Below, piece by piece: positions 26,356-33,360 of a stretch of 52,712 bases of DNA. A model generated the notes under the pieces. That model searched no databases and was not told the DNA's origin. It saw nothing but the letters and a program-made list of their open reading frames with translations. The stretch is from a virus. Lineage: Duplodnaviria; Caudoviricetes. Numbering within the stretch: the first letter of the stretch is position 1; the number at the start of each line of letters is the position of its first letter. The stretch is from IMG/VR virus record IMGVR_UViG_3300010361_000015, positions 1 to 52,712 of that record; one strand, 5' to 3'. Position numbers and translations under genes: made by a program.

Positions 26356-26366
26356 TCCACTTCTCC

Positions 26367-26526
26367 CTCTCGCTGATGCCCTGGCGAGTCAGGTATTATA
26401 GGTGCGTCTGCTACACTCTCGCTGATGACCCGGCGAGCCGGATGTCGGAAAACCCGCGCGTTCTCCCGTTATGGGCGGGGAGTGGTACACCTCCCGCTGT
26501 TGCCCTGGCGGGCCAGAAGGGATAAG
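26367..26526 (-). CRISPR. Degenerate mini-array upstream of the effector: 3 repeats, spacers of 13 and 39 nt
   Basis: Repeat-like copies at 26367-26402, 26416-26451 and 26491-26526, in the same orientation as the main array. Confidence 0.8.
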
Positions 26527-26563
26527 ATAGCCCCCAAACGAGGCATATACAAGAGGGAAATTT

Positions 26564-27058
26564 ATGGCAACGCAAAAAATTGTCGTGCGGCATGCGATCC
26601 CTGCCGACGAACGCGCGCTGTTCGACATCTTAATCGATCTGCATCGTCATGGAATTCAACGATTATTCCCCTACGACTTCGGGAAAGTCGTGGCGATGAT
26701 CGAGGGAGCTACTAAGCAACGGGGGATCATCATCGGCCTAGTTGATGCACCTGATCGCGACAATTACATCGCTGGGATGATTAGATTATCGCTGGAGGAG
26801 TGGGAATGGTCGCGCTGCGCATTTATCGTCATGCGGCAATTATATGTCCGCGAAGAGTACCGTAAGGGTACCCGATATGCTGACGCTCTGATGAAATTTG
26901 GCGAAGAGATTCGTGAGCATTTTCAGGAAGAAGTAGATTATCCGGTCGTGCTCGAAAGCTCCTACGTGCAAGAAGACCCCAGGCGTCTCGGGGTACAGGA
27001 TCGGTTTTGGGGGCGATGGGGCCGCCGCGTCGGTTCTATCTTTGTCAGCGGGCTTTGA
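26564..27058 (+). CDS. GNAT-fold acetyltransferase-like phage protein
   Basis: LYVREEYRKGTRYADALM motif A; typical position just before the ejection proteins. Confidence 0.65.
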   Translation: MATQKIVVRHAIPADERALFDILIDLHRHGIQRLFPYDFGKVVAMIEGATKQRGIIIGLVDAPDRDNYIAGMIRLSLEEWEWSRCAFIVMRQLYVREEYRKGTRYADALMKFGEEIREHFQEEVDYPVVLESSYVQEDPRRLGVQDRFWGRWGRRVGSIFVSGL

Positions 27059-27062
27059 TCGC

Positions 27063-27115
27063 GTGACATAGTTGTTTATTCCCGCTACATTTCACAGCAC
27101 GTAAGGTGTGAAATG
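27063..27115 (+). promoter_or_regulatory. Putative promoter plus 9-bp inverted repeat
   Basis: GTGACA-N17-TACATT; CATTTCACA-N10-TGTGAAATG at 27088-27115. Confidence 0.45.
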
Positions 27116-27126
27116 GTACGCGGCCT

Positions 27127-30100
27127 ATGTCCAAAGGTAGTGCTCCGACCCCAAGTTCAACCAATACGATTGTCCAGCAAAGCTCGCCGCCGCCTGCTTT
27201 TCTAAATGCCTACACAAACTTAATCGGGCAAGCTCAGGGGGTTGCGGGGCAGCCGTTTCCTGGCACCTATCCGGGACAACTGGTTGCGGGGTTCACCCCG
27301 GACCAGATGCAGGCGTTTCAGACTACCCAGAATGTCCAAGGGCAGTTTGTTCCATATCTGAATACGGCCGGGCAGGCGTTTACCCAAGCGACGCAGCCTT
27401 TATGGCCAAGCCTGCCGCAATACGACACCTCCGGCTTGCCACAAGCCGGCATTTCCTCGATCGGGAACGCTGAGCAATATGCGGCCGGGGCCGCGCAGCC
27501 TATCGCACAGACAGTTGCCCCTTATGCGGGGCTTGCCGCAAGCGCCTCACAGAACATACCGGGAGCGGTAAGCCCGCTCACCGGGATGGCTGCGGGGTAC
27601 GCTCAAACGGTACCGGGCTCGGTTGCGCCGTACACAGGATTTGCGGGCCAGACCGCAGCAAGTCTCCCCGGTCAAGTCACACCGTACACGGGATTTGCCG
27701 GGCAGACGGCGGCAGGATTAGGAAGCCAGATAGCGCCGTTTACAACTTCGGCTACGCAAGCCGCAGCAAGCGCACCCAGTTCGCTACCGCAATTCTTTAG
27801 CCCGTACACTCAACAAGTTACGACGGCTCTTCAGAATCTCTTTAATCAACAGAATGCTCAACAGCAGGCGCAGGTCGCTGGCAGCACCGTAGGAGCAGGG
27901 GCCTATGGCGGAGACCGACAGGCTGTCGCGCAAGCCCTTACCGCTCAACAGCAACAGCTTGCCGAAGCCCCGGTCCTCGCGCAGACGCTTCAACAGGGTT
28001 TCCAAGCGGCGCAACAGCAGGCAGCCCAGCAAGCCCAACTTGAAGCACAAATCGGGCTTGGTGCCGGGCAGCTTACAGGCCAGATGGGAGTAGCGGCTGG
28101 GCAACTCGGCTTGGGAGCGGGGCAACTCACCACACAAGCCGGGCTGGGAGCTGGTCAGCTAGGGCTTGGCGCGGGACAACTTACGGGGCAAATGGGCCTC
28201 GGGGCGGGTCAACTCGCGGACGTCACCGGACAGAATATCGCGCAAGCGCTCGCGCAATCCGGCCAGCTTGGGCTTGGGGCTGGGCAGCTGATGTCCGGCG
28301 CCATGGGCACGCAAGGACAGCTCGGACTTGGGGCCGGGCAGCTAAATCTTGCGGCCGGGCAAGGCTTGATGCAGGACTTTGCCCAGCAACAGCAAGCGCA
28401 ATTACAAGCCGAACAGGCAAATGCGTGGTTGGCCTCTCAGGCAGGATTTGGATTTGCTGGGCTTGGAACTCAGCAACAACAGCTAGGTCTGTCTGGCGCA
28501 GGCGCCGAGATGCAAGCTGGCGGCTTGCAGCAGCAACTCGCGCAAGAACAGTTGAACATTCCATATGAGCAGTGGGTTCAGCAGCAAGCGTATCCCTATC
28601 AGCAGCTTGGTTTTCTTGCGCCCATCGTCGAGGGGGCCGGGAGCTTAGGCGGGGGAACCTCATCGACCACATCGCCGGGCCCGAGCCTCGTCAGCCAACT
28701 TGGCGGACTTGGAATAGCTGGAACAGGACTGATCGGTGCGACGGGAGGATTTGGCTCTCAGGGATGGCTTACCAATCTGTTTGGTGGAGCCGCTCCTGGA
28801 CTAGATTTCAGCGGAGGAGCAGTTCCGCTCAGCGCAGCAGCACTTGATGCTGCGGGTTCTGCTGCAGCGATCCCTCCCGCTCTTGACGCGACAAGCGCGG
28901 CACTCTTGGCGGCGGGGGCACCATTCGGGTTCGCACGCGGGGGCCGCATCGGCTTTCAGTCCGGCGGTGACGTAGGGCTTGGAGCACAGCCTCTCGCACT
29001 TGGGCACGATCTCCCGAAAGTTCCGATCTTATCACTCGATTATATCCGAGCGCCGGGCCCTGCGATTAAGGGAGAAGGACCACCAAAGCCGCCATCTCCT
29101 GGCCAAGTCCCTCAGCAACCGAGTGATGCTCAAAATATCCTACAGGATATCCAAGCATATAAAGGGCTAAAGGGACTTGGAATTTTTGGTGATTCGGGCG
29201 ATCCGGGTACCGCAACCGATGGGGGAGCCTACCAGCTAGGCGGCGGGATCGGGCTCGGCTCTGAAACGCTTGATCGCATGAGCATGGGGCAGCGGCACCC
29301 GCATACAATGGGGGGGCAGGGGTTAGGCCATTTCGGCTCCGGAATACCGCATACATCAATGACACACCTTGGGATGGGCCCGCATCTTCGTCTGCAAGCG
29401 GGCGGGGAAAGCGATCTCTATGGCGCGACTTCGCCGATGGCCGCTGACCCGAACACCCAAAATTTATATCAACGATATCAAAACATGTCGTTGGAACAGC
29501 TGCAGGAATTGGCTATGCGGGTCGGCCCGGACTCGCCTTATGGAAAGCTGGTCCAACGCGCGCTGATGGCAAAACATATGTCACCGGGATCAGGTCTTGG
29601 CGCCGCGCCCGCCGAGACGCCGACGAACTTTCTGCCGCTACAACCACAAAGTGGCGGGACAGCGCAGGCGATGCAAGAAGGCGGCGGGGCCAGCGGTGAA
29701 CGGAATTACGTCACCGAAGATGAACTTGATCCTCATCCCGTTGTCGATCACTCCGGGGATACGATCAAGATTCGCTATCCAAGCGAAGGCAAGGTGCTCG
29801 ACCTGGGGCTCCCGACATCATTTCGTAGTTATGCGCGCGGCGGACGGGTGCGGATGCAGATAGGGGGAATGCTCCCAGGTCAATTCGGTTTGGCTACGCC
29901 AGCAACCGCGCCCGCATCCACCCAACCGCCCACTGTGGCGCCAACAGGACCGGGATCGGGGTTGGGGGTTGAGAACAAAGGAACGACGGCTGATCTTACC
30001 CCGTCGCAATTGTCTAATTTATATGCACAGTACGGCACACTATCGCCGACAAACCAAGCTACCTATAACTCTGTCGTAAGTTCAAATCAGGGAGTGTATA

Positions 30101-33100
30101 ATACCGCCGATCCAGCAAACAAGTTGGATCTTATTAACTTATTAAATCAATACGAGTCGTTGCCTGCAGCTCAGAGAACTACGTACGATGCGGCGGTAAC
30201 TGCCAATCCGTCAGTATACAATAATGCAGGCTCAGCGGGGTTGCAAAATAAGTTGGGCTTGGAATCAGCTATAAGCAAAACCGTGCCGCAGCCGCCGTCT
30301 TACGGCATCGGATCTGCCCCGGCAAACCCCTTTGCTGGCATAAGCCCCGTACAGATGCCGAACGTCGGATCGGCAAAGATTCCGCAGCCGATGACCTACC
30401 AGAATTTGTCGATGGCGCCGCTAAATCCCGCCGTCTATCAACGAAATTTGCCGGTAGTTGATATGACTCCGGGGACTTTCCCAATTCCTGGCGGCGGGGG
30501 TACTTTGGAGGGAGATCAAGCTACGGCTTCTGCCTCCCGCCCTCAGCCGGCTGCCTCGGCGTCCCCAGCGAGCATATCGTCCAGTGGCTCTAGTGGGGGC
30601 GGAAACGGCAGCGGCGGGGGTGCAAGCGGATCGGTATCCTCGGGAGGATCTGGTCAAACTCAGAACGGGTTGCCATTGATTACCGATGGCTCACAGATCG
30701 CCCAACTCGCATCCGGGACGCAATTCCAACTGTCAGGTGATCCTAACACTTACGTTACCACAGGTGGAGGCGGCTATGTTCAGGTAGCGCGAGGGGGCCG
30801 GATACGCCGACAAGAAGGGGGAGCTGCTACCGATCTCCCGCCGCTATCCGATCAGGACATGGCTCGGTTACAGGCTGCGGGGGTTAGCCAGGGCACCATT
30901 GATACCCTGCGTGCACACGGGGCAGAAGATCAACAGACTGATACCCCGACTTCGGAGTCGGCAAGAGCGGAAGCCTCTATTCCTCCTCCATCAGATCAGC
31001 CCCCAACTTTGCCATCAGAGCCTCCTAAGGCGGAGATTGCCCCTCCTTACCGTCCTGCCTCAACATGGGACAAGCCGTTAGATCAGACGAATCAGGTAAC
31101 CGTGACAGGTCGTCCCTTAGCGGATGGCGATCGGGTAGTTTCTCCACCACAGCCAAGTTCTGGTGCTAAGCCGATACCTAACTGGGGTGGAGCATCACCA
31201 AGTAGTCAAGGTCCAAGCCCGGGGTATTCTCCGGCCACTATCAAGAGTGATGGGTTAGGCGTTCCCCCACAGCACGAAGACCCATATGCCACGTATGCCA
31301 AGGCCTTGGCTGATCTCTTAAAACAGCGTGAGCCTGATACGGGACAGCGCACACTAGCCTCACCATGGCTCCCTATGATGGCGGCTGGTTTTGGGATGAT
31401 GGCTTCGCGATCACCATACCCAGGTGTTGCGATCGGCGAAGGCGGACTACATGGCATCAGGACGTTAGAAGAGCAGCAGGCGCTCATTCCGAAAACTGAT
31501 CTTGAGCGGAGCCACGCGTTGATGGCGCGGGCCCAAATGCTACAAATTCCGATGGGATTTGAGACGATGCGGGCGCTTGAGCAAGGCGGCGGGCCTGGTC
31601 TTAATACTGTTCCGACGGGGGCACAACCCGGATCCGCGGTTGCTCCTCTAACTCAAGCGGCCCCCGCTGATACGGGGCCACTCGCGACAAAGATCGCCTC
31701 TGTTGCACCGCAATATGGAATTCCCGCATCTCTTGCACTTGGTACGGCGGGGATAGAAAGCTCGATGGGGACCGATCCAAAGGCGCGCAATATTTTTGAA
31801 TTAAACAAGCGAAACTGGAGTGATATGGGAGGGGGAGACCCGGATAATAAAGACTTACAAATAGATCATGGCTTAAAATATCTGGCTGACATGCAGAAAA
31901 AGGCTACGATTTTCCTTGGACATGATCCGGAGAATTGGCAGACCTACCTATTCCATCAGCAAGGCGAAGGAGGCGCGCCGGCATTACTCCGTGCTCCACA
32001 AGGACAGAACGTCGTGGATACATTAGCGCCAGCATATAACGGGAACCGCACGATTGCCTCAGCGGCGGTTACCGGCAACGGCGGTAATGCCAATATGTCG
32101 GCACAAGATTTCGTTAATTTTCAGCGGCACCGTTTTGAGCGATTTGAGGCTCCATATCTGAGGCAAGCAACTACCTCGCAGTCGCCAGATGTCAGACTCG
32201 CACAAGCGGGGCAACCAACGGTATCGCTATCCCCAGAAGAACAACGGATAGAAGCGATAACCCAAGAACAGATCCGCCAGTCGACAATCTTGCGCAATCG
32301 AGCGACCGCTTTGGGAAATCCCCAACAGGCGGCGGTTTATCAATCAGAAATAAATCGCCTGATAACTGGAAGCCCAAGTTATAAATCAGCAGTAGAGTCC
32401 GCTCAGGAGCGACAGAAATACCACGTACTTCGCGGTCCCGGCTCTGCTCTTGTATCTCCGCAAGGGGGGATACCTGCCCAATCGCCACAAGCTGTTAATG
32501 TGATTGACAATGATCCCAAGAGTCCGACTTACGGACAAACTTATCAGACGTTTGCGTATCCTGCCATTTCAGGGCAGGCCCCCTCTGCCGTTGGGCCGGG
32601 TCAGTCCACTTCGGGAGTAGGCTCTGTGCCTCATCCTATGGGCGGGCCGCCGGGGCAGTCCGGCCCGAGTGTCGGCCCAGCTGCGCCAGGCCAAATATAT
32701 CCTACAAAGCTTGGTCCTCAGGCTGAAGAGCGCGCGCGGAAACGGACTGAAGAAGAAGAAACGCAGAGACAAAAAGTAATTACTGATGCCTCTAACTCTG
32801 AAATAATGCAGTCTACATTTGAGAATATGTCGCGTGATGCGGGGCATTTTTATACAGGTCCAGGAGCGCAGATGGCACAGCAGGTAAAAAGTTATCTTCG
32901 TCTTATAAATCCGGAGTATTCTGAATCTGTTGCCTCTTATGAAGACTTTATCAAAAACTCAGGTGCCGTCACGCGTCAAACAGTTCGCGAGGTATCTAGC
33001 CGGGCCGCTGTACAAGAATACAATATGATCAATAGCACATTGCCTAATCCAACCATGTCGCCTCTGGGCCTTAGTCGTGTAATGAATGAATTGATGGGGA

Positions 33101-33360
33101 TAAATGACTATAGAATAGTAAAAGCGCAAGCGCAAAAGCAATGGGAAGACGAGCATAATGGTGCCGTATCAGGATTTGAAACTGATTGGCAAGCCAAAGT
33201 CACCCCCACGGCCTTTATTGTCGCGCGCATGACACCAGATGTGCGCCAACAAATGGTCGCCGGATTGCAAAAAACGAACGCAGGTCAAAATATGTTAAAT
33301 CATTTGCAACAGCAAATGCACTACATAAAAGAGAACGGCCTTGACCAAGCGATACAATAA
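27127..33360 (+). CDS. Giant DNA-ejection / internal virion protein with lysozyme/SLT-like domain
   Basis: N-terminal VAGFTPDQMQAF and FFSPYTQQV...GAYGGDRQAV, Q/G-rich repeats, QQAYPYQQL; AxxYGIP...AGIESS...YLFHQQGEGGA. Confidence 0.75.
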   Translation: MSKGSAPTPSSTNTIVQQSSPPPAFLNAYTNLIGQAQGVAGQPFPGTYPGQLVAGFTPDQMQAFQTTQNVQGQFVPYLNTAGQAFTQATQPLWPSLPQYDTSGLPQAGISSIGNAEQYAAGAAQPIAQTVAPYAGLAASASQNIPGAVSPLTGMAAGYAQTVPGSVAPYTGFAGQTAASLPGQVTPYTGFAGQTAAGLGSQIAPFTTSATQAAASAPSSLPQFFSPYTQQVTTALQNLFNQQNAQQQAQVAGSTVGAGAYGGDRQAVAQALTAQQQQLAEAPVLAQTLQQGFQAAQQQAAQQAQLEAQIGLGAGQLTGQMGVAAGQLGLGAGQLTTQAGLGAGQLGLGAGQLTGQMGLGAGQLADVTGQNIAQALAQSGQLGLGAGQLMSGAMGTQGQLGLGAGQLNLAAGQGLMQDFAQQQQAQLQAEQANAWLASQAGFGFAGLGTQQQQLGLSGAGAEMQAGGLQQQLAQEQLNIPYEQWVQQQAYPYQQLGFLAPIVEGAGSLGGGTSSTTSPGPSLVSQLGGLGIAGTGLIGATGGFGSQGWLTNLFGGAAPGLDFSGGAVPLSAAALDAAGSAAAIPPALDATSAALLAAGAPFGFARGGRIGFQSGGDVGLGAQPLALGHDLPKVPILSLDYIRAPGPAIKGEGPPKPPSPGQVPQQPSDAQNILQDIQAYKGLKGLGIFGDSGDPGTATDGGAYQLGGGIGLGSETLDRMSMGQRHPHTMGGQGLGHFGSGIPHTSMTHLGMGPHLRLQAGGESDLYGATSPMAADPNTQNLYQRYQNMSLEQLQELAMRVGPDSPYGKLVQRALMAKHMSPGSGLGAAPAETPTNFLPLQPQSGGTAQAMQEGGGASGERNYVTEDELDPHPVVDHSGDTIKIRYPSEGKVLDLGLPTSFRSYARGGRVRMQIGGMLPGQFGLATPATAPASTQPPTVAPTGPGSGLGVENKGTTADLTPSQLSNLYAQYGTLSPTNQATYNSVVSSNQGVYNTADPANKLDLINLLNQYESLPAAQRTTYDAAVTANPSVYNNAGSAGLQNKLGLESAISKTVPQPPSYGIGSAPANPFAGISPVQMPNVGSAKIPQPMTYQNLSMAPLNPAVYQRNLPVVDMTPGTFPIPGGGGTLEGDQATASASRPQPAASASPASISSSGSSGGGNGSGGGASGSVSSGGSGQTQNGLPLITDGSQIAQLASGTQFQLSGDPNTYVTTGGGGYVQVARGGRIRRQEGGAATDLPPLSDQDMARLQAAGVSQGTIDTLRAHGAEDQQTDTPTSESARAEASIPPPSDQPPTLPSEPPKAEIAPPYRPASTWDKPLDQTNQVTVTGRPLADGDRVVSPPQPSSGAKPIPNWGGASPSSQGPSPGYSPATIKSDGLGVPPQHEDPYATYAKALADLLKQREPDTGQRTLASPWLPMMAAGFGMMASRSPYPGVAIGEGGLHGIRTLEEQQALIPKTDLERSHALMARAQMLQIPMGFETMRALEQGGGPGLNTVPTGAQPGSAVAPLTQAAPADTGPLATKIASVAPQYGIPASLALGTAGIESSMGTDPKARNIFELNKRNWSDMGGGDPDNKDLQIDHGLKYLADMQKKATIFLGHDPENWQTYLFHQQGEGGAPALLRAPQGQNVVDTLAPAYNGNRTIASAAVTGNGGNANMSAQDFVNFQRHRFERFEAPYLRQATTSQSPDVRLAQAGQPTVSLSPEEQRIEAITQEQIRQSTILRNRATALGNPQQAAVYQSEINRLITGSPSYKSAVESAQERQKYHVLRGPGSALVSPQGGIPAQSPQAVNVIDNDPKSPTYGQTYQTFAYPAISGQAPSAVGPGQSTSGVGSVPHPMGGPPGQSGPSVGPAAPGQIYPTKLGPQAEERARKRTEEEETQRQKVITDASNSEIMQSTFENMSRDAGHFYTGPGAQMAQQVKSYLRLINPEYSESVASYEDFIKNSGAVTRQTVREVSSRAAVQEYNMINSTLPNPTMSPLGLSRVMNELMGINDYRIVKAQAQKQWEDEHNGAVSGFETDWQAKVTPTAFIVARMTPDVRQQMVAGLQKTNAGQNMLNHLQQQMHYIKENGLDQAIQ

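Follow-up and report, generated by a model that had tools for sequence, protein, structure and literature searches.

The gene for a TnpB/Cas12f-like protein in a phage genome, predicted to be nuclease-dead, is preceded on its own strand by three copies of the handle part of the neighbouring CRISPR repeats, and the last of these copies runs directly into the Shine-Dalgarno sequence. These units share the orientation of the gene, are conserved in structure, recur in related loci and, across those loci, are enriched beside ribosome-binding sites and ATG start codons. We tentatively propose that they are cis-acting leader handles that the effector would bind, and through which translation or processing of its mRNA would be controlled, with the upstream two units perhaps also giving short guides.

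A predicted nuclease-dead effector and its CRISPR locus

The window analyzed here is the whole of an IMG/VR virus record (52,712 bp, linear, estimated to be 64% complete). It carries phage structural genes, for a virion structural protein and tail-fibre-like proteins, as well as an HNH endonuclease gene. On the minus strand, the order of transcription is three handle units, effector gene, partner ORF, inverted repeat, CRISPR array and two further units. The effector gene (25207-26355, minus strand) encodes a 382-aa TnpB/Cas12f-like protein and is followed directly by a conserved 79-aa partner ORF (24966-25205, minus strand). An 18-nt inverted repeat (24918-24960; 89% complementary, without a T run) separates the partner ORF from the array, which comprises 16 repeats of 36 nt (23760-24827, minus strand).

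The effector matched the NCBIfam guided_TnpB profile over positions 1-337 of 389 (E = 1.6e-22), with a score below the curated cut-off (80.3 vs 100 bits), and it also matched PHROG transposase families. An AlphaFold2 model built from a 54-sequence alignment had a mean pLDDT of 93.1; its top Foldseek match was ISDra2 TnpB (E = 4.7e-14, TM 0.56-0.65), followed by Cas12f and dCas12f. When 28 family members were aligned with three true TnpBs, variable residues were seen where the RuvC-I Asp and the RuvC-II Glu would stand, and the effector ends before the zinc finger and RuvC-III, leaving it without the parts of an active nuclease. Taken together, the protein sequence and the structural model indicate that the effector is a nuclease-dead TnpB/Cas12f-like protein. 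Given the loss of the catalytic residues, RNA-guided binding would be all that it can do.

A protein search returned 78 proteins, all from metagenomes or MAGs, of which 75 belong to one family of about 345-540 aa (E <= 4.5e-46). An N-terminal RRY...LYP motif is at least 90% conserved in this family. Related loci came from viral contigs, from metagenomes and from MAGs of Rhodospirillales, and the family is carried by soil phages whose hosts are probably Rhodospirillales. The 79-aa ORF is conserved beside the effector gene in 30 locus rows, several of which duplicate one contig (tblastn E 2e-38 to 2e-4), and had no match to a Pfam or PHROG family; its product probably acts as a partner of the dead effector. 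CRISPR arrays follow the effector gene in the window and in 16 of the 34 related loci examined. The records of two relatives, G004 (locus L093) and G005 (locus L094), are complete, with direct terminal repeats; in them the effector module is found at the end of the genome, and the array downstream of it runs on into the first 400 nt of the record. Among distant homologues, other arrays of 26-36-nt repeats, lying within or next to the part that matches the effector, split the effector match in L036, L131, L108, L064 and L065; these may represent a different repeat type, or insertions.

Three handle copies lie between the effector gene and its upstream neighbor

A pattern for the 22-nt guide-proximal part of the repeat matched the window at 19 sites, on the minus strand in every case, vs 0.01 expected, and none of 100 shuffles reached this number. 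Sixteen of these sites are the repeats of the array (24813-23760), and the remaining three lie upstream of the effector gene, in the same strand and orientation as the array repeats, as would be seen in a mini-array. The first upstream unit, R1, is a variant that occupies 26491-26518 (core 26512-26491; covariance model score 30.3 bits). R2 (26416-26443; core 26437-26416; 39.8 bits) is canonical, its 22-nt core being the same as that of the array repeats, and R3 (26367-26394; core 26388-26367; 32.7 bits) is again a variant; all three are on the minus strand, as are the segments around them. Between R1 and R2 lies a 38-39-nt spacer-like stretch together with a decayed 5' repeat part (26444-26490). 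The segment between R2 and R3 (26395-26415) is short, 13 nt in the 36-nt repeat frame and no longer than about 21 nt when the repeat is reduced to its 28-nt unit, and the R2-R3 period is 49 nt. R3 ends at 26367 and is followed by 11 nt (26356-26366), in which a purine-rich, Shine-Dalgarno-like run begins directly after R3, and then by the ATG at 26355. Since an in-frame stop is present in the 5' flank of R3, just upstream of its core, this ATG is the only in-frame start.

This arrangement bears out the preliminary description, which gave the order as variant repeat, 39 nt, repeat, 13 nt, repeat, and then ribosome-binding site and ATG; these gap lengths hold in the 36-nt repeat frame and become 38 and 12 nt in a 37-nt frame. 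The last repeat does abut the ribosome-binding site, as had been stated, in that the 3' end of R3 touches the Shine-Dalgarno run. The same description had the guide-proximal part of each repeat conserved and the other end decayed. We likewise found that, of the 36 nt of the repeat, the upstream copies retain just the 22-28 nt at the 3' end, with the 5' third absent from all three. Full-length repeats with regular spacers were thus not seen upstream, where the gaps are 39 and 13 nt vs mostly 35-38 nt in the array. Within the array itself, four spacers are shorter: two of 19 nt (24700-24718 and 24298-24316), which are identical to each other, one of 16 nt (24647-24662) and one of 27 nt (24234-24260).

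The gene upstream of the units is a divergent 164-aa ORF with its own Shine-Dalgarno sequence (26564-27058, plus strand), which is not next to the effector gene in relatives. Its start codon is 208 bp from that of the effector gene, so that the three units occupy 152 of these 208 bp, and the promoter of the divergent ORF must overlap the mini-array.

The handle unit is conserved as a structured RNA

Handle units were found by a hairpin pattern, a PWM and a covariance model, and 112 distinct units were gathered from the window and 24 related loci. The covariance model, which was built from these 112 units, identified 21 units in the window, scoring 27-42 bits, all on the minus strand and all within 23453-26518; the next match scored 12 bits. 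Because the window units were in the training set, what the model adds is that nothing similar exists elsewhere in the window. Two of the 21 units had not been listed in the preliminary description. One, a terminal variant unit (23749-23721, minus strand; 27.4 bits), lies 12 nt past the last array repeat, and the other (23481-23453, minus strand; 32.3 bits) is solitary, about 240 nt past the array. Both carry a compensatory inner-helix variant that is also found in R1, and no convincing gene start follows either of them.

The handle unit has two helices: an inner helix formed by columns 7-11 and 25-29, and an outer helix formed by columns 2-5 and 12-15. The inner helix occurs in five complementary versions across loci; its 100% pairing holds by construction, as pairing was required by the search pattern. 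The outer helix, which the search did not impose, was paired in 96.4% of cells over the 112 distinct units, and both sides had changed at three of its four pairs, in 43 cells. In contrast, slid controls for the outer helix were all only 26-53% paired. With the 5' strand of the inner helix lying between the two strands of the outer one, the helices would either coexist as a pseudoknot or alternate as different folds. In thermodynamic folding, the leader did no better than shuffled sequences (z = -0.01 and 0.18).

The upstream units of the window follow the same pattern. A C:G pair of the outer helix is replaced by U:A, with both positions changed, in R1 as well as in R3; in the inner helix, R1 has in addition exchanged a U:A pair for C:G. 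Both helices are therefore retained in R1 and R3 by compensatory changes, which indicates that the variant copies have been kept foldable. By their sequences, these variant units look selected as RNA, rather than decaying.

Upstream units recur in a minority of relatives

To place the upstream units in the history of the family, we used a tree of 35 full-length genes; loci whose best match started outside query residues 1-5, duplicate contigs and partial genes were left out. Thirty of these genes had at least 350 nt of upstream flank and were scored. Units were present within 350 nt upstream of the effector gene in seven of the 30 loci, namely the window, L017 and a clade consisting of L091, L092, L093, L013 and L094, a distribution for which the tree needs at least three changes. 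Other cases of upstream units are L104, with three, and L016, with one weak unit. Of the three nearest relatives of the window, L120 and L090 do not have upstream units, and the third, L011, has only 149 nt of upstream flank, too little to be scored. With 23 of the 30 scored relatives carrying no unit within 350 nt upstream, we conclude that the units are not needed for effector expression.

Where they are present, the upstream units are similar in number, with three each in the window, L093, L094 and L013, and four in L017, and in relatives they are often spaced at a period of 47-52 nt. L091 and L092 differ in having 8-14 upstream units that resemble full arrays and end 30-40 nt before the conserved N-terminus. 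The gap from the last unit to the start codon is 11 nt in the window and 34-38 nt in L093, L013 and L094; in L091, L092 and L017, no ATG, GTG or TTG occurs between the last unit and the RRY motif. Because the distance from handle to start varies in this way, from about 11 to 34-38 nt, burial of the ribosome-binding site cannot be the general mechanism. In L093, L013 and L094, the coding sequence and the units align, whereas the inter-unit segments, including the 34-38 nt before the ATG, do not. This points to selection on the units and not on the guides. Orientation was invariant: in 58 related loci (315,005 bases), all 217 model matches were on the strand of the effector gene.

In L091, a terminator-like hairpin with a T run lies inside the upstream array (L091:3110-3204), and after it comes a perfect TATAAT, 10 nt before the next unit. 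Together, these features likely split the array into two transcription units, with five units lying between them and the effector gene. Units also occur within effector coding sequences: L011 has a perfect unit (L011:731-758), translated within a variable loop, and L094 has a weaker one (L094:4208-4235; 27.8 bits), which would make the effector mRNAs of L011 and L094 further handle-carrying effector mRNAs. In L120 and L090, unit-like remnants are present in an insertion after the HARG motif.

Handle units adjoin the ribosome-binding sites of other genes

We asked how often a unit at the end of an array, or on its own, is followed by a translation start. For this count, units had to reach a PWM score of at least 22, a threshold that gave no matches in 60 shuffled sequences; the loose hairpin pattern gave many false matches in unrelated GC-rich loci. 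We found that 10 of the 53 terminal or solitary units were followed, within the next 5-30 nt, by a Shine-Dalgarno sequence, an ATG and an ORF of at least 60 aa, as compared to 3.06% of 20,000 random positions on the same strand (binomial p = 4e-6); the 10 include homologous cases (L091, L092 and L106, representing one gene), leaving about seven that are independent. The effector gene of the window is one of the 10. Four involve the partner gene, here the homologue of the 79-aa ORF of the window, with the unit 15-20 nt before it (L091, L092, L106 and L094). Three more units stand before small ORFs, one of 82 aa in L017, one of 85 aa in L104 and one of 69 aa in L106.

A further set of units was found in G001:C447, the 50-kb contig that contains L120. 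In addition to an array, this contig carries seven orphan units (E <= 0.0011) and two weaker ones, spread over about 14 kb (L199:3236-16652) and located on both strands; those that precede a gene are co-oriented with that gene. One unit is followed by 14 nt, including a Shine-Dalgarno sequence, and then by the ATG of a DUF5131 protein (Pfam 2e-58), and another by 14 nt and an 82-aa ORF; both are among the 10. A degenerate unit lies 12-14 nt before a 233-aa ORF, and a pair of units, outside the 10 of 53, precedes an Arc/RHH-like 62-aa ORF. One orphan unit of this contig follows a hairpin that resembles an intrinsic terminator. The complete genome G005 has an orphan unit with the ATG of a 77-aa ORF 19 nt behind it, a case that is also outside the 10 of 53.

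Spacer targets and promoter signals

The preliminary description had suggested that the upstream repeats yield regulatory short guides. We found no target for the upstream spacers in the window, the intergenic region, the array leader or GenBank phages. When 21 spacer seeds of 14 nt were compared with the 405-nt intergenic region and the 162-nt array leader, none did better than shuffled seeds (best match 10/14; lowest p 0.03 among 42 tests). Exact matches of more than 12 nt between a spacer and another part of the window were absent, except for the duplicated 19-nt spacer, and the upstream spacers agreed exactly with other parts of the window over 9-11 nt at most. Neither array nor mini-array had a match in GenBank phages. 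Thus, no spacer matches the promoter region, and a circuit of the CreR type is not supported. When 200 spacers from all loci were searched against about 1 Mb of loci, there was one notable match: the window spacer at 23797-23831 (minus strand) agrees at 20 of 21 nt with L107:3188-3208, a site on another viral contig about 300 nt upstream of a distant effector homologue. With an E value of 0.002 for one of 200 queries, this match is borderline.

Of the earlier interpretation, the anatomy holds. The comparative data favor a function over decay and would fit its suggestion that the effector binds or processes the handles, whereas no target was found for regulatory short guides. We also considered a tracrRNA or anti-repeat and rejected it: the units are in repeat orientation, not antisense, and the longest paired run was 10 of 36 in an ungapped scan of the effector strand over 22000-28000.

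A perfect TATAAT had been reported at 26395-26400, and it is indeed there, reading 26400-26395 on the minus strand and abutting R3. The hexamer is not rare in the window, however, with 17 occurrences found vs 15.5 expected. By the rule of the promoter scan it has no -35 partner, and the scan found no minus-strand site. R3 is the only repeat of the window preceded by TATAAT; the array repeats do not have it. Across loci, a -10-like hexamer ends at most 22 nt upstream of 11 of 218 units, again counted from a PWM score of 22 upward, vs 1.8% at random positions (p = 0.003). In G003, a TATATT lies 5 nt before an orphan unit.

Models for the upstream units

How might three handle copies before the effector gene function? 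In the model that we favor, the three 28-nt copies, which lie in effector orientation within the 208-bp leader and promoter region, would be transcribed with the effector mRNA and recognized by the dead effector in the same way as crRNA handles. R1 and R2 could then each be the source of an additional crRNA-like RNA, the guides being about 38 nt and no more than about 21 nt long. With R3, the effector mRNA itself would become a handle-bearing RNA, whose "guide" would be the Shine-Dalgarno run and the start codon. An effector bound to R3 would hide the ribosome-binding site, resulting in negative feedback, and the handles of array crRNAs would relieve this inhibition by competition. The handle-RBS module is also found in relatives before the partner gene and further phage genes, which suggests that a post-transcriptional circuit may extend beyond the effector. 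In this model, we infer from sequence the transcription of the units, their binding by the effector and the sign of the effect. With regard to the last, the sequence data would fit equally well with processing, or with stabilization of the 5' end, that increases expression. Because the distance from handle to start varies and most relatives have no upstream units, we regard the leader model as tentative, at somewhat below an even chance, and an ordinary second array as the less probable but serious competitor.

According to that competitor, the upstream units are a compact, partly eroded second CRISPR array, supplying two further crRNAs at most, and R3 would touch the ribosome-binding site only incidentally. 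In this family, the effector gene is often flanked by arrays on both sides, and the full-looking upstream arrays of L091 and L092 are of the kind of which the three units of the window could be a remnant. Short spacers (16, 19, 19 and 27 nt) are present in the main array too, conservation between close relatives does not extend to the inter-unit segments, which is what spacers usually show, and 23 of 30 relatives do without upstream units. Against such an array stand the compensatory changes that keep both helices in the variant copies, the small and similar number of upstream units across lineages (3, 3, 3, 3 and 4) and the enrichment of handle-RBS adjacency, which extends to solitary units far from arrays; we consider this explanation doubtful, though it must be taken seriously. 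A mini-array of the CreR or crlRNA type, in which a short guide pairs in part with a TAM-flanked site in its own or a different promoter, and the dead effector represses transcription, would have the published anatomy, namely degenerate, handle-keeping repeats upstream of the effector gene, and a nuclease-dead effector would suit repression. We nonetheless judge it improbable, as no seed match rose above shuffled seeds in the 405-nt intergenic region or the 162-nt array leader, the upstream spacers match other parts of the window exactly over no more than 9-11 nt, and the upstream guides are not conserved among close relatives; a target in the host, or in the 36% of the phage genome missing from the window, would be compatible with these results.

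The TATAAT that abuts R3 raises another possibility, namely that a -10 box replaced the 5' repeat part of R3, such that the mRNA begins at the handle and carries a 5' stem-loop. In type II-C arrays, promoters are embedded in the repeats, with a -10 box in every repeat, and each crRNA is a primary transcript. The excess of -10-like hexamers before units (11 of 218 vs 1.8%), which includes the perfect TATAAT in the upstream array of L091, and the TATATT 5 nt before the orphan unit of G003 fit such a start. On the other hand, there is no -35 partner, the promoter scan is blank on the minus strand, TATAAT is not under-represented in the window (17 vs 15.5 expected), and an AT-rich hexamer could equally serve the divergent gene on the other strand. 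A transcription-start role for R3 thus seems about as improbable as the promoter-targeting mini-array; it is also compatible with the leader model. Finally, the orphan units spread along about 14 kb of G001:C447 on both strands, and the units inside the coding sequences of L011 and L094, recall a REP-like small palindromic repeat that spreads or recombines in phage genomes, with a proximity to genes that has nothing to do with the effector. The units are, however, the 3' part of the CRISPR repeats of their own locus and vary with them between loci, they are co-oriented with the effector gene (217 of 217) or with the gene that they precede, and no unit of the window lies outside 23453-26518, making this a very unlikely account.

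The leader model can be extended to a broader and more speculative one, which we think unlikely. The dead effector could be a post-transcriptional regulator, besides or instead of a DNA binder, with handles fused to the ribosome-binding sites of the effector, partner, DUF5131 and Arc/RHH-like repressor genes. The mRNAs would be loaded as guides, their translation or stability would track the ratio of free effector to crRNA, and an mRNA-loaded effector might bind homologous DNA of competing phages.

Relation to known systems

Repeat-like elements beside cas genes are known to act by guiding an effector to promoters. CreR and regulatory mini-arrays act by promoter targeting and are thought to tie the effector level to the crRNA load (10.1101/2023.03.10.532045; 10.1101/2023.03.03.530964); in type V-A, the spacer of CreR is partly complementary to a PAM-flanked site in the cas promoter (10.1101/2023.03.10.532045). 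CreR, the type I mini-arrays and the window have in common that degenerate repeats with intact handle and hairpin closely precede the effector gene (10.1101/2023.03.10.532045; 10.1101/2023.03.03.530964). Unlike CreR, the window has no promoter match, its last handle is fused to the ribosome-binding site, its effector appears to be naturally nuclease-dead, and handle modules of its type also lie before other genes in relatives. Here, the evidence instead points to a cis element, in the form of a structurally conserved crRNA handle that lies at the effector ribosome-binding site and, among relatives, also at the ribosome-binding sites of the partner and of further phage genes.

Standalone repeat units (SRUs) upstream of cas12a are closer in some respects. 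Their function is given as unknown, and the authors suggest that the SRU RNAs might bind the effector (10.1101/2023.03.03.530964). As described there, SRUs resemble the units of the window in being repeat-like, next to the effector gene, conserved within a clade and without identifiable target (10.1101/2023.03.03.530964). They have low repeat identity, and that text describes no adjacency to a ribosome-binding site, whereas the handle of the window is near-perfect and structurally conserved (10.1101/2023.03.03.530964). In addition, unlike the cas12a SRUs, the system of the window is phage-borne and has a TnpB-sized, apparently dead effector.

Dead relatives of TnpB and Cas12f have been described as RNA-guided repressors or activators (10.1101/2023.11.30.569447; 10.64898/2026.09.22.753285; PMC13472631). 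TldR and dCas12f share with the effector studied here the TnpB/Cas12f fold, the loss of RuvC residues, a C-terminal truncation and a phage or mobile-element context (10.1101/2023.11.30.569447; PMC13472631). The effector thus resembles TldR in its predicted nuclease-dead state. In contrast to the single omega-RNA-like guide gene, without a CRISPR array, of TldR and most dCas12f, the window family has arrays of 5-16 repeats and a partner of 79-89 aa. Subtypes V-O and V-P are mentioned as predicted dead type V subtypes, with no features given that could be compared with the window family (PMC12669027). The window family, whose members combine dead effectors of 380-430 aa with a conserved small partner and arrays, is itself poorly described, although it may already be catalogued in published type V supplementary data.

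Control of translation by a repeat-binding Cas protein has a precedent in engineered Cas6f/Csy4 hairpins placed at the ribosome-binding site (PMC13478208). That device is synthetic and uses a dedicated endoribonuclease (PMC13478208), whereas the arrangement in the window is natural and the presumed binder is the guide-RNA effector. In the literature searched, with supplements outside its scope, we found no natural crRNA handle fused to a ribosome-binding site, nor did we find a TnpB-derived guide-RNA protein acting as a regulator of translation or RNA processing. If the effector does bind these leaders, then a TnpB-derived guide-RNA protein would double as such a regulator, and the leader would represent a compact natural design for coupling gene expression to guide-RNA load.

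Other features of the window

On the plus strand, the window contains a 2077-aa ORF (27127-33360) with many internal direct repeats, at spacings of 54 and 108 nt, around 27600-28500. Its matches to PHROG families are weak, with a DNA ejection protein among them.
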